The notes: generated by a model not told the origin, from the sequence alone. Shown: positions 41,705-60,152, numbered from the stretch's first letter. The stretch: DNA of 64,000 nt from a bacterium (GCA_043807085.1 JAZDGI010000005.1:5816-69815); one strand, 5' to 3'. Translations and numbers: made by a program.

Positions 41705-43375
41705 ATGCTTCGGCAAGAAATTAAAAATTTAGTGGAAAAAGCGGTAAAAGAGCTCTACGGAATAGGGGCTGAAATTAGAATTGACCAGCCGGAAAATGCG
41801 GATTTTGGGGATTATTCCACAAATGTGGCGATGCTACTCAAAAAAAATCCTCAAGAAGTAGCAGGGGCGATAAAATCCCCGATTTTAGAAAAAGTAGAAG
41901 TAAAAAACGGGTTTATCAACTTTTGGGTCAGTCAGAGAGAACTAGAAAAGTTATATTCTGAATATCTAAAAAAAGGCGTGAGATTTTTTCAAAATAAACC
42001 CCAAAAGAAAGAAATAATTGTCATTGAGTATTCTTCTCCAAATATCGCTAAGCCCCTTGGTATTCACCATCTCCGATCAACTATTATCGGTCAGGCGCTG
42101 GTTAATATCTTGCGGTTTATCGGTCATAAAATAATTTCCTTAAGTTTTCCGGGCGATTTTGGCACCCAATTCGGCTTTTTAATTGCCGCCTATAAGCGCT
42201 GGGGCGGCCGCGAGAAACTAAAGAAAAACCCAATTTCCGAAATGCTTAATCTTTATGTCCGTTTTTCGCAGGCGGCTAAAGAAGACCCAAGACTTCTTGA
42301 GGACGGGCGAAGGGAATTTAAAAAACTGGAACAGGGCGATATTGAAAATAAAAAGCTCTGGAAATGGTTTTCAGATGAATCATTGCGGGATTTCGATCGG
42401 GTTTATAAATTGCTTGATGTTAAAATTGAAAATACAATCGGCGAAAGCTTTTATGAGCCGGAATTAAAATCTTTAGTCCAAGACGCTTTAAAAAGAGGCA
42501 TTGCCGAAAAAGGCGAAGATGGCGCGATTGTGATTAAAATTCCAAATAGCGATACTCCGGAGATAATCCAAAAAGCGGACGGAGCCACGATTTATACGAC
42601 CAGAGAATTAGCCGCTATCCGCCATCGCATTAAGAAATGGCAGGCAACAAAAATTTTGTACGCTGCGGCCAACCAGCAAACATTTCATCTTGCCCAGGTT
42701 TTCGGCGCGGCCCAGCGGCTCGGCATTGCCAAGCTTGAGCAGTTGGGCCATATAAAATTTGGCATGATGCTGGGGCCTGGCGGAAAAAAATTCGCTACCC
42801 GAGAAGGCCGATTGATACCAATGGAGGAAGTTTTGAATGAAGCAGTTTTGCGGGCTAGAAAAATTATTGAAGAACTAAATTCTTCTTTAACTGAATTGGA
42901 AAAAGAAAAAATCGCCAAAGAGGTTGGAATTGGAGCGGTAAAATTTTTTGACCTCTCTCACAATCGCTTGTCTGATATTATTTTTGAGTGGGACAACATT
43001 TTAAATTTAAAGGGCTTTGCTTCTCCTTATATCCAATATACTTATGCTCGTTTGGCAAGCATACTAAGGAAAGGTAATTTCAAAAAGAAAACAGGCAGTT
43101 TTGTTATCACTCATCCGTTAGAAAGAAAAATAATATTAATGATTCTCGGTTTTGGTGAAATATTGCAAGAAATCGGTAAAACATATTTTCCAAACCAGCT
43201 GGCGGAATATATTTATAAGTTAAGTAATGAATTAAATGCCTTTTACGAAGTACTGCCCATATTAAAAGCAGAAGCCAAAGAAAGAGAAAGCCGCCTTAAT
43301 CTTATTTTGGGAGCGAAAGAAATTTTAAAAACCGGACTAAATCTTTTAGGCATTTCCGCGCCGGAGAAAATGTGA
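41705..43375 (+). CDS. argS: Arginine--tRNA ligase
   Basis: 556 aa. SSPNIAKPLGIHHLRS (HIGH region) and C-terminal DALR anticodon-binding domain. Confidence 0.95.
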   Translation: MLRQEIKNLVEKAVKELYGIGAEIRIDQPENADFGDYSTNVAMLLKKNPQEVAGAIKSPILEKVEVKNGFINFWVSQRELEKLYSEYLKKGVRFFQNKPQKKEIIVIEYSSPNIAKPLGIHHLRSTIIGQALVNILRFIGHKIISLSFPGDFGTQFGFLIAAYKRWGGREKLKKNPISEMLNLYVRFSQAAKEDPRLLEDGRREFKKLEQGDIENKKLWKWFSDESLRDFDRVYKLLDVKIENTIGESFYEPELKSLVQDALKRGIAEKGEDGAIVIKIPNSDTPEIIQKADGATIYTTRELAAIRHRIKKWQATKILYAAANQQTFHLAQVFGAAQRLGIAKLEQLGHIKFGMMLGPGGKKFATREGRLIPMEEVLNEAVLRARKIIEELNSSLTELEKEKIAKEVGIGAVKFFDLSHNRLSDIIFEWDNILNLKGFASPYIQYTYARLASILRKGNFKKKTGSFVITHPLERKIILMILGFGEILQEIGKTYFPNQLAEYIYKLSNELNAFYEVLPILKAEAKERESRLNLILGAKEILKTGLNLLGISAPEKM

Positions 43376-43454
43376 GATTGACATTTTTTAAAAAATCTTT
43401 TAGTTTAAATAAACCATCGTATTTTTAAAATAAAAAATGGGAAAGGAGATTGGC

Positions 43455-43706
43455 ATGACTGGAAGCGCTAATGAGAGAAAATTTGAGAAGCCCTCTCGGT
43501 TAACGCCAACCGAAAAAAGAATATTGAGTTTGATTGCCCAGAAGATACCGCGGGAAGAAATTGCCAACTCTTTGCATATCTCCCTCAAAGCCGTTGCTAA
43601 AGAACTTCACGCGATCAGGGAAAAATTGGAGATTGGTAGCAGCGGGTTGGCGGTTGATACCGATAAGCGGACGGTCGAGAAGGCCGCCGCCGAAGATATA
43701 ACTTGA
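43455..43706 (+). CDS. Small LuxR/GerE-type HTH protein
   Basis: LTPTEKRILSLIAQKIPREEIANSLHISLKAVAKELHAIREKL. ATG 43455 is preferred (GGAG lies 6 nt upstream); the track start at 43437 is the alternative. Confidence 0.7.
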   Translation: MTGSANERKFEKPSRLTPTEKRILSLIAQKIPREEIANSLHISLKAVAKELHAIREKLEIGSSGLAVDTDKRTVEKAAAEDIT

Positions 43707-43913: not shown

Positions 43914-44489
43914 TTGATGAATAAGTATAAATATTATTTTAAAAAGCCGAAATCGGAAATCTCAAAAGATATCGTGAAAGGATTGCTGGTGGGCGGGGCA
44001 GTTTGTATCTCCGCAGCCTCACCTTATTTTGCTTCAAATTTGATGCGAGCCATAAGGCAAAGCAAAAAATATGAGAGAAAAAGATTTTACGACACTTTTT
44101 ATAGGCTGAAAAAACGTGGATGTATTAAGTTTGAAAAAAAGAATCACCAAATTTATATAAGCCTGACTGACGAGGGCAGGAAAAAAGCCGGAATATATCA
44201 AATTAACGACTTGGAGATTAAAAAACCTAAAAAATGGGACGGGAGATGGAGAATAATTCTTTTTGATATTTCTGAAGTAAAAAAAATAAAAAGAGAAGCT
44301 TTCCGCGGAAAATTAAAAGAATTAGGTTTTTATCCCTTTCAAAAGAGCGCCTGGATTCATCCTTACGATTGTCGCAACGAAGTTGAGCTACTGAAAGACT
44401 TTTTCGGCTTAGGTGAGCAGGAGCTTCGCTTAATTGTCGCGCAAGATATTGGGGAAAATATTTTTTTGAGAAATATCTTTAAAATTTAA
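43914..44489 (+). CDS. PaaX-family-like regulator (wHTH + Cas2-like C-terminal domain)
   Basis: 191 aa. WDGRWRIILFDISEVKKIKREAFRGKLKELGFYPFQKSAWIHPYDC is the hallmark PaaX C-domain pattern. An N-terminal TM-like segment is present. Confidence 0.65.
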   Translation: MMNKYKYYFKKPKSEISKDIVKGLLVGGAVCISAASPYFASNLMRAIRQSKKYERKRFYDTFYRLKKRGCIKFEKKNHQIYISLTDEGRKKAGIYQINDLEIKKPKKWDGRWRIILFDISEVKKIKREAFRGKLKELGFYPFQKSAWIHPYDCRNEVELLKDFFGLGEQELRLIVAQDIGENIFLRNIFKI

Positions 44490-44594: not shown

Positions 44595-47500
44595 ATGGAT
44601 GTAAACTTTCCGGAGCTTGAGGAGAAAATTTTAAAATTCTGGCGGGAAAACCTGATTTTTAAAAAATCAATTTCACGGCGCAAAAAGAGCCGCAATTTTG
44701 TGTTTTACGAGGGCCCGCCCACGGCCAACGGAAAGCCTGGAATCCATCATGTTTTGACCAGGGTTTTTAAAGACATTATCTGCCGCTATAAAACTATGCG
44801 GGGTTTTAGAGTTGAGAGAAAGGCCGGCTGGGACACTCACGGCTTGCCGGTAGAGCTGGAAGTTGAAAAAAAATTAGGGTTGAAAAATAAAAAAGACATT
44901 GAAAAATACGGCATAGCTAAATTTAATAAAAATTGCCAAGAATCGGTTTGGCAATATAAAAAAGAATGGGAGAAATTAACCGACAGGATTGGTTTTTGGC
45001 TTGACGAGGACAATCCGTACGTCACCTATCAAACGGAATACATTGAAACCGTTTGGCATATTTTGAAGCGGATTTACCAAAAAGGCCTGCTTTATCATGA
45101 TTACAAGGTGGTTCCTTATTGCCCAAGGTGTGGAACTACCTTATCCAGCCACGAGGTTGCCCAAGGATACGAAAAGATCAAAGATCCTTCTATTTTCGTC
45201 AAATTCAGGATTAAAAATCCGGAATTCAAAGATTCTTATTTGCTGATTTGGACCACTACTCCCTGGACGTTGCCAGGCAACGTGGCGATTGCCGTTAATC
45301 CCGAGATGGCTTATGCCAAAATCAAATCGCCAGATATAGAAGAGTATTTAATTTTAGCTAAAGACAAAATAGCCGAACGGCAAATAAAAGGAAAAATAGT
45401 CCAAGAATTTAAGGGAAAGGATTTAGCCGGATTGGCTTACGAGCCAGCGTACGCTGACGAGGATTTTTCTAAAAGCGCCTACAGAGTCATTTTGGCTGAT
45501 TTTGTTTCTTTGGAAAGCGGCACTGGTTTAGTTCATATTGCCCCGGGTTTTGGATTGGAAGATATGGAAGCTGTAAAAAATCAAAACACAGAATCAAAAA
45601 GGCAGGGTCTGCCCGAACTCCCAATTTTATTGCCAGTGAACGAAGAAGGGAAATTCGCGCTTGACGCCAAGAAGTGGGCCGGAATGTTTGTCAAAGAAGC
45701 GGACCCTTTGATTATTAACGATCTGAAAGAAAGGGGTTTTTTGTTCGCTGAAGAATTATACGAACACGATTACCCTTTTTGCTGGCGCTGTCATTCTCCG
45801 CTGCTTTATTACGCCAGAAAATCTTGGTTTATTCAGACGACCAAAATTAAGGACGATCTTATTGGGAATAATCAAAAAATAAATTGGGTTCCGGTTCATT
45901 TGAAAGAAGGAAGATTCGGCGAGTGGTTAAGAGATTTGAAAGACTGGGCTTTGACCAGAGAAAGATATTGGGGAACTCCCCTGCCTATTTGGCAATGCAA
46001 GACCTGCGGAAAGCAGGAAATTATCGGCTCTAGAAAAGAACTATTCGGCCGAGCTTCTTCGGGCAGCAGATATTTTATTTTCCGCCACGGGTATTCTTTA
46101 AGGCAGATTAAAAAGGTATCTTCCTGCTGGCCGGAAAAAGTACCATTTCCCTTGACGAAAAAAGGAGAGAGGGAGGTTGAGGTCGCGGCGAAAAAACTAA
46201 AAAATAAAAAAATTGACTTAATTTTTTCCTCCGACCTGTTGAGAGCGAAGCAAACCGCCCGAATTATCGCCAAAGAAACCGGAGCCAAAATAATTATCGC
46301 CAAGCAATTGAGGGATTATAACGTGGGAGTTTTTAACTATAAAAATCCGAAATTATCTTGGGAATATTTGGAGAAAAGCGAAAATCCGATTTTAACGAAA
46401 TTGCCCAAGGGAGAGAGTCTGGCAAATATCAGAAAAAGAATGTACGAATTTTTAAAAAGAGTAAATGAAAAATACCCGGCAAAAAACATTGTTATCGTGT
46501 CTCACGAGCTCCCTTTGACGATTTTAGAGCAGACCTTAAGCGGCTTGGAATTAGAAGAAATATTGAAACAAAGGGCGCAGCGGAAAATAAATCCAATCGC
46601 TACGGCCGAATGGCGGGAGATAAAGTTTAAAACCCTTCCCTTTAACGGCAATTACGAAATAGATCTCCACCGCCCTTATATTGACGAAATGAAATTTCAG
46701 TGTCTGGGTTGTCAGGGTGAGATGGAAAGGGTTTCTGAAGTTATAGATTGCTGGTTTGATTCGGGCTCTATGCCCTTTGCCCAGGCGCGCTGGCCGTTCA
46801 GCGGAAACTTGAAGCCTGAACCCTCTGGCGCGAAACCTCCGAAACTGTTCCCGGCAGATTATATTGCCGAAGGGGTTGATCAGACGAGAGGCTGGTTTTA
46901 CACCCTATTGGCGATCTCCACGCTTTTAGGATTTGGTTCTCCCTACAAGAATGTCATTTCCTTGGGCCATATTTTAGATGAAAAGGGAGAAAAAATGTCA
47001 AAATCGAAAGGTAATATTGTTGATCCGTGGTATATTGCCGGCCGGTACGGGGCAGACGCCGCCCGTTGGTATTTTTATACCGTCAACCAGCCCGGCGAAG
47101 CGAAATTGTTTTCAGAGAAAGATATTGACCAGGCATTAAAAAGATTTATTTTGATATTTTGGAATTGTTTTACCTTCTGGGAAACATACAAAAAAAATTC
47201 AAAAGTCAAAAGCCAAAAGACAAAACCAAAGAATGTTTTAGATAGGTGGATTATTTCCAGGCTGAACCGGCTGGTTTTAGAAGCGACCGAATCTTTGGAC
47301 AGATTTGATGTGACAGGCGCGGCTAGAATTATTGAAAATTTTGTAATCAACGATTTGTCTTTGTGGTATATTAGAAGATCCAGAAAGCGGTTCAAAGAGA
47401 TTGAGAATTTTTTAGCCCTTATTCTTTTGGCTGTATGCAAACTTGGCGCGCCCTTCTTTCCTTTTTTGAGCGAAGAAATATACCAAAAAATTTCCGGTTG

Positions 47501-48065
47501 CCGATTTTCAGCTTCCAAATCAGTGCATTTGGAAAAGTGGCCGATAGCGGATAAAAAATTAATTGATAAAAAACTGGAGGGAAGCATGAACGAGGTTCGC
47601 GAGATAGTCAATTTAGGATTGAGAGAAAGGGCGAAGTCGGGCATTAAGGTCAGGCAGCCTCTCGGTAAATTACAAATTACAAATTGCAAATTACAAAAAG
47701 AGGAAGAACTTCTGGGGCTAATAAGAGAAGAGGTTAATGTTAAGGAAATTACTTTCGGCGAGTCTTTAAGGCTAGATACGGAAATAACCGAAGAACTTGA
47801 AAGGGAAGGAATTGTTCGGGAAGTTGTTCGTCAGATTCAGGGAATGAGAAAAGAGGCAAAATTGCGGCCGAAAGATAAAATTTCAGTGAGCTATTTAGCC
47901 GAAGGCGAATTGGGCGAAATTTTGGAAAAAAGTAAAAGTTTGATGCTGGAGGAGGCGAATATAAGCGATTTAGTCCGACGAAGAGAGATTTCGGGGGAGT
48001 TTCTCGCTCAAAAAGAAATAAAGGTCGGCGATGAAAAATTATGGCTGGGAATTAAGAAAATTTAA
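44595..48065 (+). CDS. ileS: Isoleucine--tRNA ligase with an inserted histidine-phosphatase (PGAM-like) domain
   Basis: 1156 aa. HIGH-type motif (GKPGIHHV), CP1 editing domain, KMSKS. Residues ~487-685 (nt ~46053..46655) form an extra domain with RHG, LTKKGE, SSDLLRAKQTA and SHE motifs. Confidence 0.95.
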   Translation: MDVNFPELEEKILKFWRENLIFKKSISRRKKSRNFVFYEGPPTANGKPGIHHVLTRVFKDIICRYKTMRGFRVERKAGWDTHGLPVELEVEKKLGLKNKKDIEKYGIAKFNKNCQESVWQYKKEWEKLTDRIGFWLDEDNPYVTYQTEYIETVWHILKRIYQKGLLYHDYKVVPYCPRCGTTLSSHEVAQGYEKIKDPSIFVKFRIKNPEFKDSYLLIWTTTPWTLPGNVAIAVNPEMAYAKIKSPDIEEYLILAKDKIAERQIKGKIVQEFKGKDLAGLAYEPAYADEDFSKSAYRVILADFVSLESGTGLVHIAPGFGLEDMEAVKNQNTESKRQGLPELPILLPVNEEGKFALDAKKWAGMFVKEADPLIINDLKERGFLFAEELYEHDYPFCWRCHSPLLYYARKSWFIQTTKIKDDLIGNNQKINWVPVHLKEGRFGEWLRDLKDWALTRERYWGTPLPIWQCKTCGKQEIIGSRKELFGRASSGSRYFIFRHGYSLRQIKKVSSCWPEKVPFPLTKKGEREVEVAAKKLKNKKIDLIFSSDLLRAKQTARIIAKETGAKIIIAKQLRDYNVGVFNYKNPKLSWEYLEKSENPILTKLPKGESLANIRKRMYEFLKRVNEKYPAKNIVIVSHELPLTILEQTLSGLELEEILKQRAQRKINPIATAEWREIKFKTLPFNGNYEIDLHRPYIDEMKFQCLGCQGEMERVSEVIDCWFDSGSMPFAQARWPFSGNLKPEPSGAKPPKLFPADYIAEGVDQTRGWFYTLLAISTLLGFGSPYKNVISLGHILDEKGEKMSKSKGNIVDPWYIAGRYGADAARWYFYTVNQPGEAKLFSEKDIDQALKRFILIFWNCFTFWETYKKNSKVKSQKTKPKNVLDRWIISRLNRLVLEATESLDRFDVTGAARIIENFVINDLSLWYIRRSRKRFKEIENFLALILLAVCKLGAPFFPFLSEEIYQKISGCRFSASKSVHLEKWPIADKKLIDKKLEGSMNEVREIVNLGLRERAKSGIKVRQPLGKLQITNCKLQKEEELLGLIREEVNVKEITFGESLRLDTEITEELEREGIVREVVRQIQGMRKEAKLRPKDKISVSYLAEGELGEILEKSKSLMLEEANISDLVRRREISGEFLAQKEIKVGDEKLWLGIKKI
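47199..47226 (+). repeat. Heptanucleotide-periodic repeat in ileS (TCAAAAG TCAAAAG CCAAAAG ACAAAAC)
   Basis: Four 7-nt units read through as SKVKSQKTKP. Confidence 0.8.
47667..47694 (+). repeat. Heptanucleotide tandem repeat in ileS (AAATTAC x2, AAATTGC, AAATTAC)
   Basis: Four 7-nt units with one substitution encode KLQITNCKLQ. Confidence 0.95.
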
Positions 48066-48069
48066 AAAA

Positions 48070-48444
48070 ATGCCGTTTTTAAACTTCGGAGATTTCGGCC
48101 GGCTGACAAAACCAACTAAAGAAGCGCCAAGTAAAAAGCCGGCGGCAAAAGACGTCAAAAAAGACCCCTCTCTCTATGGCGGCAAAGACTATTTGAAAGG
48201 AGAAACGGGAAGGAACTGGTTGAGAACGGATGAGGCTTGGAAAATTATGAAAAAGTCGGCGGGAGAGAGAGTCTCTTTTGAAAAAGAGTTGCTCAGAGGC
48301 GGTCAGGGGATTTCCAGGCAAAAAATGGAAGAGGATTATAAAAAAATAACCCAATTCCCCAATCAATATAAAAAGGAGCATGGCGTAGACGAGAAAGAAA
48401 GAAATATAAGAGTTGAAACTTATAAAAAATTCCTGGGCAAATAA
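48070..48444 (+). CDS. Hypothetical lysine-rich protein
   Basis: 124 aa from ATG 48070 (MPFLNFGDFGRL...). The track start at 48031 overlaps the ileS end. No recognisable motif. Confidence 0.5.
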   Translation: MPFLNFGDFGRLTKPTKEAPSKKPAAKDVKKDPSLYGGKDYLKGETGRNWLRTDEAWKIMKKSAGERVSFEKELLRGGQGISRQKMEEDYKKITQFPNQYKKEHGVDEKERNIRVETYKKFLGK

Positions 48445-48449
48445 ATTTT

Positions 48450-49181
48450 TTGATGTTCGTCCACTACAGAACCCAGGGCCTGGTTGTTGAAAAAAGAGAG
48501 AGAGGAGAGGCTGATTTGATATTCACGATTTACACGAAAGATTTCGGGAAATTGGAAATTTTGGGAAGAGCCGTCCGTAAAATTTCTTCAAAATTGAGAT
48601 CGGCCGTAAGGGTCTTTTGCCTTTCGGAGATGGAATTTGTCCAGGGTAAGAGATACAAAACTCTGACCGACGCGATTTTGATTGAAAAATTCGGCAATAT
48701 AAAAAAAGATCTGGGAAGATTGGCGGTTGCCCATAAAATCGCCGATATTTTAGATGAGCTGATTAGCGGTCAGGAGCGCGATGAAAAAGTTTGGCGGCTT
48801 TTAAAGGAAACATTTGACATCTTGGATAACCGGAGAATCGTTAACTGGCAGATTGTTTTTTATTTCTTTTTTTGGAATTTTATTTCTCTTTTAGGCTATC
48901 GACCGGAGCTCTATTGTTGCTCATTCTGCAAAAAGAAGTTGGAACCAGAAAGATTATTTTTCAGCCACAAAGAAGGGGGCGTCATTTGCCAAAATTGCGC
49001 CAAAAGAGCAGAATTAAAAGAAGAGATTGATTCGGAAGCGGTAAAAATTTTGAGGATAATAATTAGAAAAGACTGGGAAATGCTTTCAAAATTAAAAATT
49101 GACAAAAACAGCCTTAAGGAACTGCAAACAATTTCCGGACGGCATTATTTATATCTATGCGAAAGCTTATCTTCTTTATAA
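48450..49181 (+). CDS. recO: DNA repair protein RecO
   Basis: 243 aa. OB-fold N-terminus (YRTQGLVVEKRERGEADLIFTIYTKDFGKLEILGRAVRK) and a Cys4 zinc motif (CCSFC...CQNC). Confidence 0.85.
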   Translation: MMFVHYRTQGLVVEKRERGEADLIFTIYTKDFGKLEILGRAVRKISSKLRSAVRVFCLSEMEFVQGKRYKTLTDAILIEKFGNIKKDLGRLAVAHKIADILDELISGQERDEKVWRLLKETFDILDNRRIVNWQIVFYFFFWNFISLLGYRPELYCCSFCKKKLEPERLFFSHKEGGVICQNCAKRAELKEEIDSEAVKILRIIIRKDWEMLSKLKIDKNSLKELQTISGRHYLYLCESLSSL

Positions 49182-55374: not shown

Positions 55375-56826
55375 ATGTCAACCAAGACAACCAAGAAAAA
55401 AACATTTTATATTACCACCAGCATTCCCTATGTTAACGCGCCGCCGCACATAGGTTTTGCCCAGGAACTGATCCAGGCGGATGTTTTGGCCCGCTATCAC
55501 CGCGGCTTGAGCGAAGACGTTTTCTTTCTGACCGGTACCGACGAGAACGGCTTAAAAAACGCGCTGGCGGCTGAAAAAGCAGGGAAGACTCCCCAAGAAT
55601 TTGTTGATGAAATATCAGAAAAATTTAGGCTTTTGACAAAAAGTTTGAACCTATCAAACGACGATTTTATCAGAACTAGCGACAAAAAGAGGCATTGGCC
55701 AGCCGCTCAAAAAGTTTGGTCTCTGCTAAAAGAGAGCGGGGATATTTACAAAAAGAAATACAGGGGCCTTTATTGCGTCGGCTGTGAAGCTTTTATCAAA
55801 GAAAAAGACCTTGTTAACGGACAATGTCCGGTTCATCTGAAAAAGCCAGAAGTTTTAGGGGAAGAGAATTATTTTTTCCGGCTGTCAAAATACGCAGCTT
55901 TAGTAGAAAAGGAAATCAGAGAAAATAAGATAAAAATCGTCCCGGAATCCAAAAAAAATGAAATTTTGAATTTTATAAGTCAGGGAGTTGAAGATGTCAG
56001 CTGCTCCCGCTCAAAAGAGAAGTTAAAATGGGGAGTGCCGGTTCCAGGCGACCAAAACCAGATAATTTATATCTGGCTGGAGGCGCTTTCAAATTATATT
56101 TCTGCTTTAAATTACGCTTCAAACGGAGACAAATTTAAAAAATTCTGGCCGGCCGATATTCATTGCATGGGAAAAGATATTTTCCGTTTTCACGCCTTGC
56201 TCTGGCCAGCGGTGCTTGTGTCTATTAAATTGCCTTTGCCCAAGACAATTTTTGTACGCGGATTTATGACTTCCGGCGGTCAAAAAATGTCAAAGTCATT
56301 AGGCAATGTTGTTGATCCTTTTGAACTGGTAAAGAAATATGGGACAGACGCTGTTCGCTATTTTCTTTTGCGGGAAATTCCAGCGACAGAGGATGGAGAT
56401 TTTACTATTGAAAAATTTGAACAGAGATATAATAGCGATTTGGCAAGTGGTTTAGGGAATTTAGTAGCCAGAGTAATAACGATGGCTAAAAATCCGAAAT
56501 CCGAAATCCGAAGCACGAAACAAATTCAAAATTTTAAATTCCAGACAACAATAAATAAAACTAAGAAAGATTACGAAAAATCCTTAGAAGAGTTTAGGTT
56601 TAATGAGGCGTTGATTGCGATTTGGGAGTTGATTAGTTTTTGCGACGAATATATTGAAAAAGAAAAGCCGTGGGAGGGAGGAAAAAATGATGTTATTAGC
56701 GGTTTGTTATTCGTCATTAGCCAGCTAGCAGAATTATTAGAGCCATTTTTGCCTGAAACCGCGGAAAAAATAACTAAACAGCTTAAAATCCAAAAAAGCG
56801 AACTATTATTCCCCCGTTTAAAATGA
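55375..56826 (+). CDS. metG: Methionine--tRNA ligase
   Basis: 483 aa. TSIPYVNAPPHIGF (HIGH-type), zinc knuckle CVGCEAF...CPVH, KMSKS. Confidence 0.95.
   Translation: MSTKTTKKKTFYITTSIPYVNAPPHIGFAQELIQADVLARYHRGLSEDVFFLTGTDENGLKNALAAEKAGKTPQEFVDEISEKFRLLTKSLNLSNDDFIRTSDKKRHWPAAQKVWSLLKESGDIYKKKYRGLYCVGCEAFIKEKDLVNGQCPVHLKKPEVLGEENYFFRLSKYAALVEKEIRENKIKIVPESKKNEILNFISQGVEDVSCSRSKEKLKWGVPVPGDQNQIIYIWLEALSNYISALNYASNGDKFKKFWPADIHCMGKDIFRFHALLWPAVLVSIKLPLPKTIFVRGFMTSGGQKMSKSLGNVVDPFELVKKYGTDAVRYFLLREIPATEDGDFTIEKFEQRYNSDLASGLGNLVARVITMAKNPKSEIRSTKQIQNFKFQTTINKTKKDYEKSLEEFRFNEALIAIWELISFCDEYIEKEKPWEGGKNDVISGLLFVISQLAELLEPFLPETAEKITKQLKIQKSELLFPRLK
56490..56517 (+). repeat. Heptanucleotide tandem repeat in metG (AAATCCG x3 + AAGCACG)
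   Basis: Three perfect units and one degenerate unit encode (K)NPKSEIRST. A further 7-nt-periodic tail (AAACAAA TTCAAAA TTTTAAA) follows. Confidence 0.95.
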
Positions 56827-57716: not shown

Positions 57717-60152
57717 ATGGAATCGTATAATCCGCGGAAAATTGAGGCAAAATGGCAGAAAATCTGGGAGAAAAAAGGGTTTTATAAAGCTGAAGATTTT
57801 TCCAAAAAGCCCAATCGGTACATTCTGTTTGAATTCCCTTATCCTTCCGGAGAGGGTCTTCATGTCGGCCACCCCAGAAGCTACGTTGCCTTAGACGCAA
57901 TTGCTCGCAAAAGGAGGATGGAAGGATTTAATGTTTTGTTCCCGATTGGCTGGGACGCTTTTGGTTTGCCGACGGAAAACTATGCCATTAAAACCGGCGT
58001 CCATCCGAAGGTTGCCACCGAGAAAAACATCGCCACTTTCAAAAGACAACTAGAATCTTTGGGTTTGTCTTTTGATTGGTCGAGAGAAATCAATACGACC
58101 GACCCGAAATATTATAAATGGACGCAATGGATTTTTCTGAAACTTTTTGAAAAAGGTTTAGCTTATCAAGCGGAAATACCGGTTAATTGGTGTCCCTCCT
58201 GTAAAATCGGCTTGGCCAACGAAGAAGTGGTGGACGGTCAATGCGAGCGCTGCGGCGCCGAGGTTGGAGAGAAATTATTAAAGCAATGGATGATAAAAAT
58301 CACGAAATACGCCGACAGGTTGATTGACGATTTGAAAAATGTTGATTTCCCCGAGCGGGTTAAAGCCCAGCAAATAAACTGGATAGGTAGGAGCGGTGGG
58401 GTTAACTTGAGAAATAAGATTAAGGATATGGACATTGAGTTTGAGGTCTACGACTCAATTCCTCAGACTTTTTTGGCCCAGACTTTTACCGTTATTGCCC
58501 CCGATCACCCTTTATTGCAAAAGTTGATTGAAGGTACTGAATACGAAAGACCGGCTTTGGAGTTTGCCCGCAAAATTATCAAGAAAAGAACGGAAGAAAA
58601 ATACGAAACCATCAAAGAGCTCGAAGGAATTTTCACGGGGAGATACGTTGAGAATTATATGGGTACTGGCCGAGACTTGCCAATTTGGGTGGCTAGTTAT
58701 GTTCTTTCTGAATACGGGACAGGCATAGTCAATTGTAGTGCTCACGATGAGAGGGATTTCGCTTTCGCTAAAAAATATAAAATTCCTCTCCGCGCTGTTT
58801 TATTGCCCGAAGACAAGGCATTAGCCGAAAAGGTAAAGAATTTAGAAGTCTTTTATCGGGAACCAGACGGGATTCTTCAAGAGCCCTTAGCGTTCAAAGG
58901 GATGAGATGGGCAGAAGCTAAAGAGCCGATAATTGATTATTTGATAAAAAATAATTTAGGCAGTAGGGCCGTCAATTATAAGTTGCGCGACTGGGTTTTT
59001 TCCAGACAGCATTATTGGGGAGAACCAATCCCGATTATCCATTGCGAAAAGTGCGGGATAGCGCCAGTTCCAGAAAAGGATTTGCCGGTGGAGTTGCCTT
59101 ATGTGGAAAAATACCAGCCGACAGGCACGGGCGAGTCGCCTCTGGCCGCGATTGCCGAGTGGGTCAACATCAAATGTCCCAAATGCGGCGGCCACGCAAA
59201 GAGGGAAACAGATACTATGCCTAATTGGGCCGGCTCCAATTGGTACTATTTAAGATATTTGGACCCTAAAAATGATAAAGCATTGGCGGATGCTAAAAAA
59301 ATAAAATACTGGATGCCGGTTGATTGGTATAACGGCGGCATGGAGCATACCACTCTACACCTTTTATACTCCCGTTTTATTTATAAATTCCTTTTTGATA
59401 TTGGCGTGGCACCGCAGCCCGAACCTTACCAGAAAAGAACTTCTCACGGTATGGTTTTGGCCGAGGACGGCAGGAAGATGTCAAAATCTTTTGGCAATGT
59501 CATTAACCCCGATGATATCGTAGAAAAATTCGGAGCGGATACAATGCGTCTTTATGAAATGTTTATGGGGCCATTTGATCAAGCGGTTTCCTGGAGCACA
59601 CGGGGCGTGATAGGCGTTTCAAGATTTTTGGGAAAGACCTGGAATTTAGTTTTGGAATGCCGCGGAAATAAAGAAAGCAGCCAAAAGATTTTAAGGGTTA
59701 TTAGCAAGCTTAATAAAAAAATCAACGACGATTTAGAGGTAATGAAATTCAACACTATAATTTCTTCTTTCATGGAATTTATTAATTTAGGCCAAGAACA
59801 TAAAAATGAGATAGGCAAAGAAATAATTGAAAAATTTTTAATTTTAATTTCGCCTTTTGCTCCCCATATTGCCGAAGAGTTATGGGATCAAACGGGTCAT
59901 AAAAACAGCATCTTTTTAGAAAAATGGCCGAAGTGTGATCCAAGGTTTATTAAAGACGAAATAATGACTCTGATTATCCAGATTAACGGCAAGTTTCGCG
60001 ATAAAATTGAGGTAGGCCTAGAAACCACGAAAGAGGAGGCCGAAAAATTGACTTTGGGGCGAGAAAGGGTTAAACAATGGATATCGGGCAAGGAAATAAA
60101 AAAGATAATTTTTGTCCAAAATAAACTAATTAATATCGTATGTGCGGGATAG
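57717..60152 (+). CDS. leuS: Leucine--tRNA ligase
   Basis: 811 aa. YPSGEGLHVGH (HIGH), CP1 editing domain, KMSKS. Confidence 0.97.
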   Translation: MESYNPRKIEAKWQKIWEKKGFYKAEDFSKKPNRYILFEFPYPSGEGLHVGHPRSYVALDAIARKRRMEGFNVLFPIGWDAFGLPTENYAIKTGVHPKVATEKNIATFKRQLESLGLSFDWSREINTTDPKYYKWTQWIFLKLFEKGLAYQAEIPVNWCPSCKIGLANEEVVDGQCERCGAEVGEKLLKQWMIKITKYADRLIDDLKNVDFPERVKAQQINWIGRSGGVNLRNKIKDMDIEFEVYDSIPQTFLAQTFTVIAPDHPLLQKLIEGTEYERPALEFARKIIKKRTEEKYETIKELEGIFTGRYVENYMGTGRDLPIWVASYVLSEYGTGIVNCSAHDERDFAFAKKYKIPLRAVLLPEDKALAEKVKNLEVFYREPDGILQEPLAFKGMRWAEAKEPIIDYLIKNNLGSRAVNYKLRDWVFSRQHYWGEPIPIIHCEKCGIAPVPEKDLPVELPYVEKYQPTGTGESPLAAIAEWVNIKCPKCGGHAKRETDTMPNWAGSNWYYLRYLDPKNDKALADAKKIKYWMPVDWYNGGMEHTTLHLLYSRFIYKFLFDIGVAPQPEPYQKRTSHGMVLAEDGRKMSKSFGNVINPDDIVEKFGADTMRLYEMFMGPFDQAVSWSTRGVIGVSRFLGKTWNLVLECRGNKESSQKILRVISKLNKKINDDLEVMKFNTIISSFMEFINLGQEHKNEIGKEIIEKFLILISPFAPHIAEELWDQTGHKNSIFLEKWPKCDPRFIKDEIMTLIIQINGKFRDKIEVGLETTKEEAEKLTLGRERVKQWISGKEIKKIIFVQNKLINIVCAG

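Follow-up and report, generated by a model that had tools for sequence, protein, structure and literature searches.

Aminoacyl-tRNA synthetases are among the best-studied enzymes, and to our knowledge the only hydrolytic modules nested in those of class Ia are editing domains. In isoleucyl-, valyl- and leucyl-tRNA synthetase (IleRS, ValRS and LeuRS), the editing domain lies in a connective-polypeptide (CP) loop of the Rossmann fold, CP1, and works in cis on what the synthetic site handles. For a foreign enzyme domain carried by IleRS, the nearest precedent is the curated model ileS_w_GNAT (NF040702), in which host and guest are unrelated enzymes. A CobC-like phosphatase joined to a nucleic-acid enzyme is known from the RNase H/acid phosphatase family (NF005567, PRK07238; Rv2228c type). 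Here, we describe an ileS gene in a 64,000-nucleotide (nt) stretch of DNA from a bacterium (GCA_043807085.1, JAZDGI010000005.1:5816-69815; "the window" below), which is predicted to encode a type-2 IleRS with a complete histidine phosphatase nested in another connective loop, CP3. Like CP1, this phosphatase is a hydrolytic domain within a Rossmann connective-polypeptide loop; unlike CP1, which is universal, has a fixed site and acts on mis-acylated tRNA or adenylate, it is lineage-restricted, is seen at four positions or more and, in some genomes, has a gene of its own. It shares with ileS_w_GNAT the placing of an unrelated enzyme domain inside IleRS, and the 2 kinds of guest occur together in relatives P0301 and P0319, but the guest in the window protein is a phosphatase: it reaches 298 bits with NF040702, whose cutoff is 1999, and Pfam gives no GNAT match to it. 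The RNase H/acid phosphatases are terminal fusions with another partner enzyme, whereas our domain is nested, and the phosphatase half of NF005567 matches the insert at 63-67 bits, far below its cutoff of 326. No publication describing a phosphatase nested in or coupled to IleRS was found in the literature, and the structural and evolutionary papers on IleRS that were consulted do not mention a phosphatase insert, in line with the initial annotation, which was made from the sequence alone and knew of no characterised precedent. The parts are familiar; the partnership of IleRS and phosphatase is undescribed and evolutionarily persistent.

The window IleRS matches NCBI entry MFH1180891.1 exactly, a protein titled 'class I tRNA ligase family protein [bacterium]'. 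Alignment with T. thermophilus IleRS (1ILE) equates window residue 488 with T. thermophilus residue 481 and residue 689 with residue 488, and a 200-residue enzyme domain thus stands in place of a CP3 loop of about 6 residues. The break is also seen by the family models: the NCBIfam ileS model TIGR00392 (894.8 bits against a cutoff of 621.4) matches in two stretches flanking the insert, and Pfam tRNA-synt_1 matches in two pieces (E 1e-114), followed by Anticodon_1 (residues 883-1023) and DUF5915 (residues 1059-1155, E 4e-17). The insertion site lies in the CP3 loop between the Cys pairs C468/C471 and C703/C706. CP3 is a peripheral connective-polypeptide module leading from CP2 to the second Rossmann half; its topology varies among IleRSs, and CP3 of the T. 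thermophilus type binds zinc (PMC7191050). The initial annotation had placed about 200 extra residues, at 46053-46655 (residues 487-687), in a short linker within the catalytic body of the synthetase. The insertion is borne out, with its limits now at residues 489-688; it is inside IleRS as stated, in the peripheral CP3 subdomain and not in the Rossmann core.

Outside the insert, the protein is collinear with type-2 IleRSs of known structure (1ILE/1JZQ and the P. megaterium set 8C8U-8C9D) and shares their CP1 editing domain and DUF5915 region. Among solved structures, 1ILE (E 3e-259) and P. megaterium IleRS2 (8C8U-W, E 1e-241) come closest, each aligned in two blocks, while the IleRS1 structures 8C9F and 1FFY match less well (E ~1e-96 to 1e-99); with 1ILE and the P. 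megaterium enzyme closest and a C-terminus of the DUF5915/ARD3 type in place of the IleRS1 zinc-binding domain, the window IleRS is classed by homology as the eukaryote-like type 2 (IleRS2). The mupirocin-resistance models for MupA and MupB (NF000257 and NF000258) score 819 and 841 bits, below the cutoff of 1900. We compared the protein with 60 diverse insert-bearing IleRSs, 36-66% identical to it, an alignment that is used for all family counts given here. The CP3 zinc-knuckle Cys pairs are shared with T. thermophilus IleRS, and the positions of C468 and C471 hold Cys in 49/60 and 45/60 sequences. KMSKS, the WTTTPWTLP editing motif and the CP-core Cys are retained across the family, W219 and T220-222 being invariant. 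The C-terminal part runs from DLHRPY through C703/C706 and WFDSG (residues 720-724) to the second Rossmann half and the anticodon-binding domain. That the HIGH-type, CP1 and KMSKS motifs are intact, as annotated at first, stands with one refinement: the HIGH signature takes the form GIHH, an example of the GXHH variant found in 32 of the 60 sequences (HXGH in 20). This variant, which the window protein shares with IleRS2 enzymes, is functional in IleRS2, is tolerated there only, and gives mupirocin hyper-resistance (PMC10485003). An AlphaFold2 model of the whole protein has a mean predicted local distance difference test (pLDDT) score of 91.2 and a predicted template modelling (pTM) score of 0.86, with the insert at 83-97 and the linkers confident.

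The insert consists of a short N-linker, a histidine phosphatase and a C-linker with LPFN. Pfam His_Phos_1 (PF00300) covers residues 494-658 of the whole protein (E 5.1e-29; 101.8 bits against a gathering cutoff of 21.7), and the excised segment 46053-46655 alone is recognised at E 1.2e-30 (107.1 bits), the check that the initial annotation had proposed. Over its full length, from a 'YFILRHG' strand to a 'TGELRKL' strand, the insert is collinear with free-standing proteins of about 190 residues; together with the intact host motifs, this end-to-end alignment agrees with the earlier view of a nested whole domain, and neither a terminal fusion nor a pseudogene. The signature set listed there is present as well: RHG at residues 497-499, Arg550 in SSDLLRAKQTA and His637 in VSHELPL. 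Careful alignment preserves it, R497, H498, R550 and H637 being found in all 60 sequences, with E or D at position 574 in every one; S546 and E607 are likewise invariant. The "active-looking" label given to the domain at first is in keeping with this invariance, and we consider the insert a catalytically complete branch-1 histidine phosphatase that is apparently active. A model of the domain alone (AlphaFold2, pLDDT 93, pTM 0.90) was compared with known structures by Foldseek. It resembles PspA (4IJ5), CobC (6NRU, 6E4B), PhoE (1H2E/1EBB), HFP (9MMH), GpgP (4PZ9) and TIGAR (3E9E) with template modelling (TM) scores of 0.70-0.76, none outstanding. The likeness extends to the Arg-His...Arg...acid...His constellation and the size of about 190 residues; unlike these enzymes, to which it is 19-23% identical, our domain is either part of IleRS or coupled to it in translation. 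In the 60-sequence alignment, pairwise identity averages 0.32 for the insert, 0.46-0.52 for the Rossmann halves and 0.30 for the C-terminal domain; by these measures, the phosphatase domain is less constrained overall and its active site is strictly kept.

Several more specific identities were considered and rejected. A cofactor-dependent phosphoglycerate mutase is not indicated by any of 3 models (TIGR01258, 36.9 bits against 81.7; the archaeal NF038349, 75 against 225; NF010713, 27 against 305). Scores also fall short of the cutoffs for CobC alpha-ribazole phosphatase (TIGR03162, 76 against 162.9 bits), PspA phosphoserine phosphatase (NF045917, 68.9 against 350), SixA phosphohistidine phosphatase (TIGR00249, 32.3 against 74.5) and the GpmB- and PhoE-type models. 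Judged by these models, the phosphatase belongs to PF00300 but to none of its characterised subfamilies. A part in a defence system was rejected for lack of any match between the PADLOC-DB anti-phage models and either the nested or the free-standing phosphatase at E <= 0.01.

We also considered an artefact or a selfish element: a chimera made in assembly, a homing or intein-like insertion, or the fragment of a pseudogene in decay. What spoke for this was a first word-indexed search with the insert alone, which gave only one other insert-bearing IleRS, at a locus (L001) where ileS seemed split into two genes. The break in L001 is a scaffold gap filled with N, so that a pseudogene there was rejected, and the single match reflects a limit of the word index, since full-length and exhaustive searches gave hundreds. 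PF00300 is present in every one of the 120 best IleRS homologues (59-67% identity). A HMMER search with a junction-spanning query gave, at E <= 1e-30, 205 sequences that each represent a 50%-identity cluster, and both junctions are aligned in one stretch in about 130 of the 150 cluster representatives listed among these 205. Hundreds of independent assemblies carry the same in-frame architecture, which disposes of a chimeric assembly or a one-off. Nor do we see the marks of an intein or mobile element: no Hint, intein or endonuclease family is among the Pfam matches of the window IleRS, in keeping with the initial statement that intein hallmarks are absent; no flanking direct or inverted repeats were found at the insert junctions; the GC content of the insert (0.398, against 0.416 for the rest of ileS) and that at third codon positions match the host gene; and the insert is fully covered by His_Phos_1. 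The 80 surveyed assemblies described below hold one copy per genome, and the window copy occurs only in ileS. We regard this explanation as effectively refuted. Of separate note, a 12-nt perfect inverted repeat (46074-46085 and 46580-46591; TTTATTTTCCGC / GCGGAAAATAAA; 494 nt apart) lies inside the phosphatase-coding segment, away from the junctions, and is probably a chance occurrence.

These insert-bearing IleRSs all come from Patescibacteria/Parcubacteria, a large group of bacteria with tiny genomes, and the source names of the 120 best homologues include Nealsonbacteria, Paceibacterota, Pacebacteria, Parcubacteria and Patescibacteria. Found throughout the lineage, the architecture is present in databases under names that do not flag its bifunctionality. 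As a side observation, many of the species-representative metagenome-assembled genomes at L008-L086 are labelled 'uncultured Candidatus Saccharibacteria bacterium', and a few Humimicrobiaceae, Binatia, Methylomirabilota or WOR-3; such labels are probably generic names or mis-binned contigs rather than true taxonomic breadth.

The same phosphatase also exists outside IleRS. The free-standing proteins closest to it (42-50% identity) are products of genes that immediately precede an ileS lacking the insert (949-970 residues), in loci that share the window's synteny argS...ileS-recO, with the phosphatase gene between argS and ileS. In L004 and L006, the phosphatase stop codon overlaps the ileS start, as is often the case in this arrangement, and P0004 is likewise directly upstream of ileS. 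The idea of a coupled activity, put forward with the initial annotation, gains strength from this arrangement. We surveyed one genome per species (GTDB representatives) for a sequence motif of this subfamily and classed the loci by family-alignment hidden Markov models (HMMs); as the survey was limited to that one motif, its counts hold for this subfamily and not for all Patescibacteria. Among 80 loci, the phosphatase is nested at the window's site in 52 and lies directly upstream of ileS in 22 (gap -21 to +57 nt); one further locus has one gene between, 2 could not be classed because their contigs are too short, and 3 are clearly unlinked. Linkage to ileS, whether nested, adjacent or near, was thus found in 75/78 evaluable species genomes. 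Since the 80 loci come from 80 different assemblies, there is one phosphatase copy per genome; the window, too, has one phosphatase copy and one ileS.

Nested and adjacent forms have been exchanged repeatedly. When the nested and adjacent states are mapped on a neighbour-joining tree built from the IleRS core (70 taxa and 921 columns), 7 changes are needed (6-8 over bootstraps), against a mean of 18.3 and a minimum of 13 when labels are shuffled. Adjacent forms are mostly deep in this tree, and the window falls within a large nested crown clade. A neighbour-joining tree of the domain itself gives 5-13 steps, and the nested domains are not monophyletic. From these topologies, the state would have switched at least 6 times on the ileS tree and at least 5 times on the domain tree. 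A single origin of nesting, spread by recombination, was rejected because the nested domains are not monophyletic, though the junctions are alike between nested clades: each has an N-linker of 13-14 residues and an 'LPxN' C-linker, where insert-less enzymes have a loop of 6-9 residues.

The domain is found at other positions in IleRS as well. Besides the window's site (site A), it occurs in divergent relatives at site B, after WFDSGSMPF (window residue ~740; P0296, P0301, P0305 and P0259), at site C, the boundary of the catalytic and anticodon domains (residue ~880; P0244, P0271 and P0296), and at site D (residue ~420; P0297). Two copies stand in tandem at site A in P0274, P0279 and P0313, and at different sites in P0259, P0271 and P0296; P0297 has four domain matches, one at site D and three at site A, the last of them truncated where the protein ends. 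Sites B and C fall on the two lowest-confidence loops of the window model (pLDDT minima at residues 731-750 and 861-880). Guests of other kinds are also found. A GNAT acetyltransferase is nested at site B in P0301, and two are present in P0319, where one lies within the N-terminal/CP1 region. At site B of P0312, a P-loop-kinase-like segment (AAA_18/AAA_33/Zeta_toxin, weak) is weakly similar to APS kinase, shikimate kinase and Pnkp1 (E >= 3e-4) and was seen in one cluster.

Based on these findings, we lean, with only modest confidence, towards a bifunctional protein: a working type-2 IleRS with a competent phosphatase in its CP3 surface loop, the phosphatase being a dedicated partner of IleRS. 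The chief competitor is a housekeeping phosphatase that merely travels with ileS: an ordinary metabolic or house-cleaning phosphomonoesterase, its chemistry unrelated to IleRS, which would have entered the ileS operon, later reached permissive IleRS loops, and been kept only for co-expression and regulatory economy in a minimal genome. Such a passenger would explain why the fold and closest relatives are those of generic small-molecule phosphatases, why a paralogous clade is unlinked and sits beside nucleotide house-cleaning genes, why insertions fall in the host surface loops that are modelled with the lowest confidence (at sites B and C), and why the domain evolves faster than the host core; the free-standing copies are, moreover, packed equally tightly against the upstream argS. 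It accounts poorly for a linkage to ileS that holds in the survey over IleRS divergence down to ~40% identity. Nesting is also confined to IleRS, where it recurs at no fewer than 4 sites and is accompanied by tandem amplification, and no such domain was found in the other class I synthetases of the window (LeuRS, MetRS and ArgRS); such repeated nesting and amplification are hard to explain by neutral operon accidents. We therefore think an unrelated passenger rather unlikely, while giving it serious weight.

In the bifunctional protein that we favor, the chemistry would follow that of the family. His498 would attack a phosphomonoester and become a phospho-histidine, with Arg497, Arg550 and His637 holding the phosphate; Asp574, which aligns with the Glu of 'IIEIDHG' in PspA, would protonate the leaving group, and water would then free the phosphate. 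Synthetase and phosphatase would work together, whether the latter is nested or supplied as the product of a separate upstream gene. Since the domain is found at several loops and also as a separate polypeptide, the coupling would be by proximity or stoichiometry and not by a fixed channel. As for the substrate, we tentatively suggest, at clearly less than even confidence, a small phosphomonoester of nucleotide type that is encountered at IleRS, either a nucleoside monophosphate, for instance AMP, or the 2'/3'-phosphorylated end of tRNA-Ile. AMP is released by aminoacylation and by editing, and a phosphate at the 2' or 3' position of A76 of tRNA-Ile would block charging. Three weak hints point to a nucleotide-type substrate. 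The nearest relatives in sequence and structure are capped small-substrate phosphatases (PspA; CobC, which acts on alpha-ribazole-5'-phosphate; HFP, GpgP, PhoE and TIGAR). The only unlinked clade adjoins nucleotide house-cleaning genes, with MazG and an HD_3/YfbR-like 5'-deoxynucleotidase (L081, 5989-6958; L082, 4782-6392) or with two NUDIX genes and DUF3850/ASCH (L086, 4767-6585) beside the phosphatase. The isoelectric points also differ, the ileS-linked forms being basic (9.2-9.6) and the unlinked clade acidic (~5.6).

Several points weigh against this reading in one or another of its parts. Asp574 takes the place of the usual Glu, and Gln504 that of the Asn in RHGxxxxN, so that the activity of the window domain could be below that of its relatives; the insert also changes faster than the catalytic core, as the identities given above indicate. 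Because loci and not whole genomes were surveyed, a second, insert-less ileS may exist elsewhere in the genome. The contrasts in neighborhood and isoelectric point come from one narrow unlinked clade of 5 sequences. Our literature search gave no example of a branch-1 histidine phosphatase with activity on the ends of tRNA or RNA, and dephosphorylation of AMP looks wasteful for a salvage-dependent organism. The varied insertion sites would argue against precise coupling of the active sites and would fit mere co-expression equally well.

A stronger version of the partnership would make the phosphatase a cis-acting quality-control or repair module of the synthetase, ranking with the editing domain and making charging possible again by removing a blocking phosphate. 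The phosphate might be on the 2'/3' end of tRNA-Ile, after (pyro)phosphorylation by a toxin or nuclease damage, or on IleRS itself, for example where a HipA-like kinase has modified the serine of the KMSKS loop. The GNAT and P-loop-kinase-like inserts would then be further synthetase-borne modifying enzymes of Patescibacteria, a set unrecognised before. We consider this version unlikely. One of its targets is the basis of an explanation in its own right, a built-in phosphoprotein phosphatase that strips phosphate from IleRS itself, for instance from the KMSKS-loop serine, as a tethered antidote or an eraser in growth control. HipA/HipT-type kinases phosphorylate the KMSKS-loop serine in GltX and TrpS. 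This explanation suits the restriction to a single synthetase, and tethering at any near loop, or a stoichiometric partner, would suffice for it. Branch 1 includes SixA, albeit the SixA model is a weak match here (32 bits), and rare relatives carry P-loop-kinase-like and GNAT domains, classes that include protein modifiers. Against these stand the greater nearness of the domain to capped small-substrate enzymes than to SixA and the absence of Sts-1 and PGAM5 from the top 50 fold matches; the kinase-like insert, for its part, resembles small-molecule or polynucleotide kinases, and no candidate kinase was found near ileS. On balance, self-dephosphorylation appears quite improbable to us.

The GXHH variant and the GNAT inserts bring to mind one more role, target-tethered detoxification, in which the phosphatase, like the GNAT and kinase-like inserts, would inactivate an inhibitor of IleRS such as a phosphorylated mimic of isoleucyl-adenylate. 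IleRS is a frequent target of natural products, and GNATs such as MccE acetylate aminoacyl-nucleotide antibiotics; the GNAT inserts share the IleRS scaffold with our phosphatase, and NCBIfam holds a model for them. Yet we know of no IleRS inhibitor with an essential phosphomonoester, and adenylate mimics are joined by phosphodiester or phosphoramidate bonds, which are not normally hydrolysed by enzymes of the histidine phosphatase kind. That the GXHH variant, present in the window protein and in about half of the family, is tied to mupirocin hyper-resistance (PMC10485003) suggests inhibitor pressure. Universal, lineage-wide retention of the phosphatase suits a housekeeping role better than resistance, and we hold detoxification to be very improbable.

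The lineage-wide tie between IleRS and the phosphatase, whether nested, in tandem or translationally coupled, would imply a phosphate-removing step, one that textbooks do not describe, of importance to isoleucine charging or its control in minimal, host-dependent bacteria. The family also offers a clean natural example of repeated interconversion between a neighboring gene and a nested domain, and the IleRS of Patescibacteria appears as a scaffold in which phosphatase, GNAT and kinase-like enzyme domains gather. The case is directly testable, as the proteins are small enough to express and nature supplies both split and fused forms for comparison.

Table 1. Features in and around the window ileS gene, with positions counted from the first nucleotide of the window.
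Feature	Position	Strand	Basis or remark
argS, upstream syntenic neighbor	41705..43375	+	TIGR00456, 431 bits
89-residue open reading frame (ORF), LuxR/GerE-type helix-turn-helix, between argS and the PaaX-like ORF	43437-43706	+	
191-residue ORF with PaaX_M (Cas2-like) domain, directly upstream of ileS	43914-44489	+	Pfam
ileS, type-2 IleRS (by homology) with nested phosphatase, 1156 residues	44595..48065	+	Single uninterrupted ORF
IleRS N-terminal part, residues 1-488: first Rossmann half, CP core, CP1 editing domain, CP2, first half of CP3	44595..46058	+	Aligns with 1ILE 8-481
GIHH, HIGH-equivalent signature (GXHH variant), residues 49-52	44739..44750	+	Motif check
WTTTPWTLP, threonine-rich CP1 editing motif, residues 219-227	45249..45275	+	Identical in 50/60 homologues
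CKTC, first Cys pair of the CP3 zinc knuckle, C468/C471	45996..46007	+	Aligns with T. thermophilus CQAC
Inserted segment, residues 489-688	46059..46658	+	Gap against 1ILE and 8C8W
Histidine phosphatase (branch 1) domain, residues 492-682	46068..46640	+	Family HMM, 220 bits
RHG: Arg497, His498 (predicted phospho-acceptor), Gly499	46083..46091	+	R and H 60/60; G 56/60
Arg550, second arginine of the predicted phosphate pocket	46242..46244	+	60/60
Asp574, predicted proton-donor position	46314..46316	+	Glu 54/60, Asp 6/60
His637, distal catalytic histidine (predicted)	46503..46505	+	60/60
IleRS C-terminal part, residues 689-1156: second half of CP3 to DUF5915	46659..48062	+	Aligns with 1ILE 488-821
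KMSKS, residues 800-804	46992-47006	+	Motif check
137-residue ORF overlapping the last 35 nt of ileS	48031-48444	+	No Pfam match
recO, downstream neighbor in nested and free-standing loci	48450..49181	+	Pfam RecO_N, RecO_C

The HMM named "N" in our family set spans residues 2-484 of the window protein, within the N-terminal part listed in Table 1. Among the neighbors of ileS, homologues of the PaaX-like ORF are found at the same place in the nested loci L056, L024 and L069, and in L051 such a homologue is the sole gene between a free-standing phosphatase and ileS. The 137-residue ORF has conserved counterparts (32-45% identity) downstream of ileS in L001, L027, L007 and L017, in nested and free-standing contexts, and is probably a real gene. 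Of additional note, argS and ileS are followed on the same strand by metG (55375-56826) and leuS (57717-60152), so that the window holds four class I synthetase genes within ~18.5 kb.

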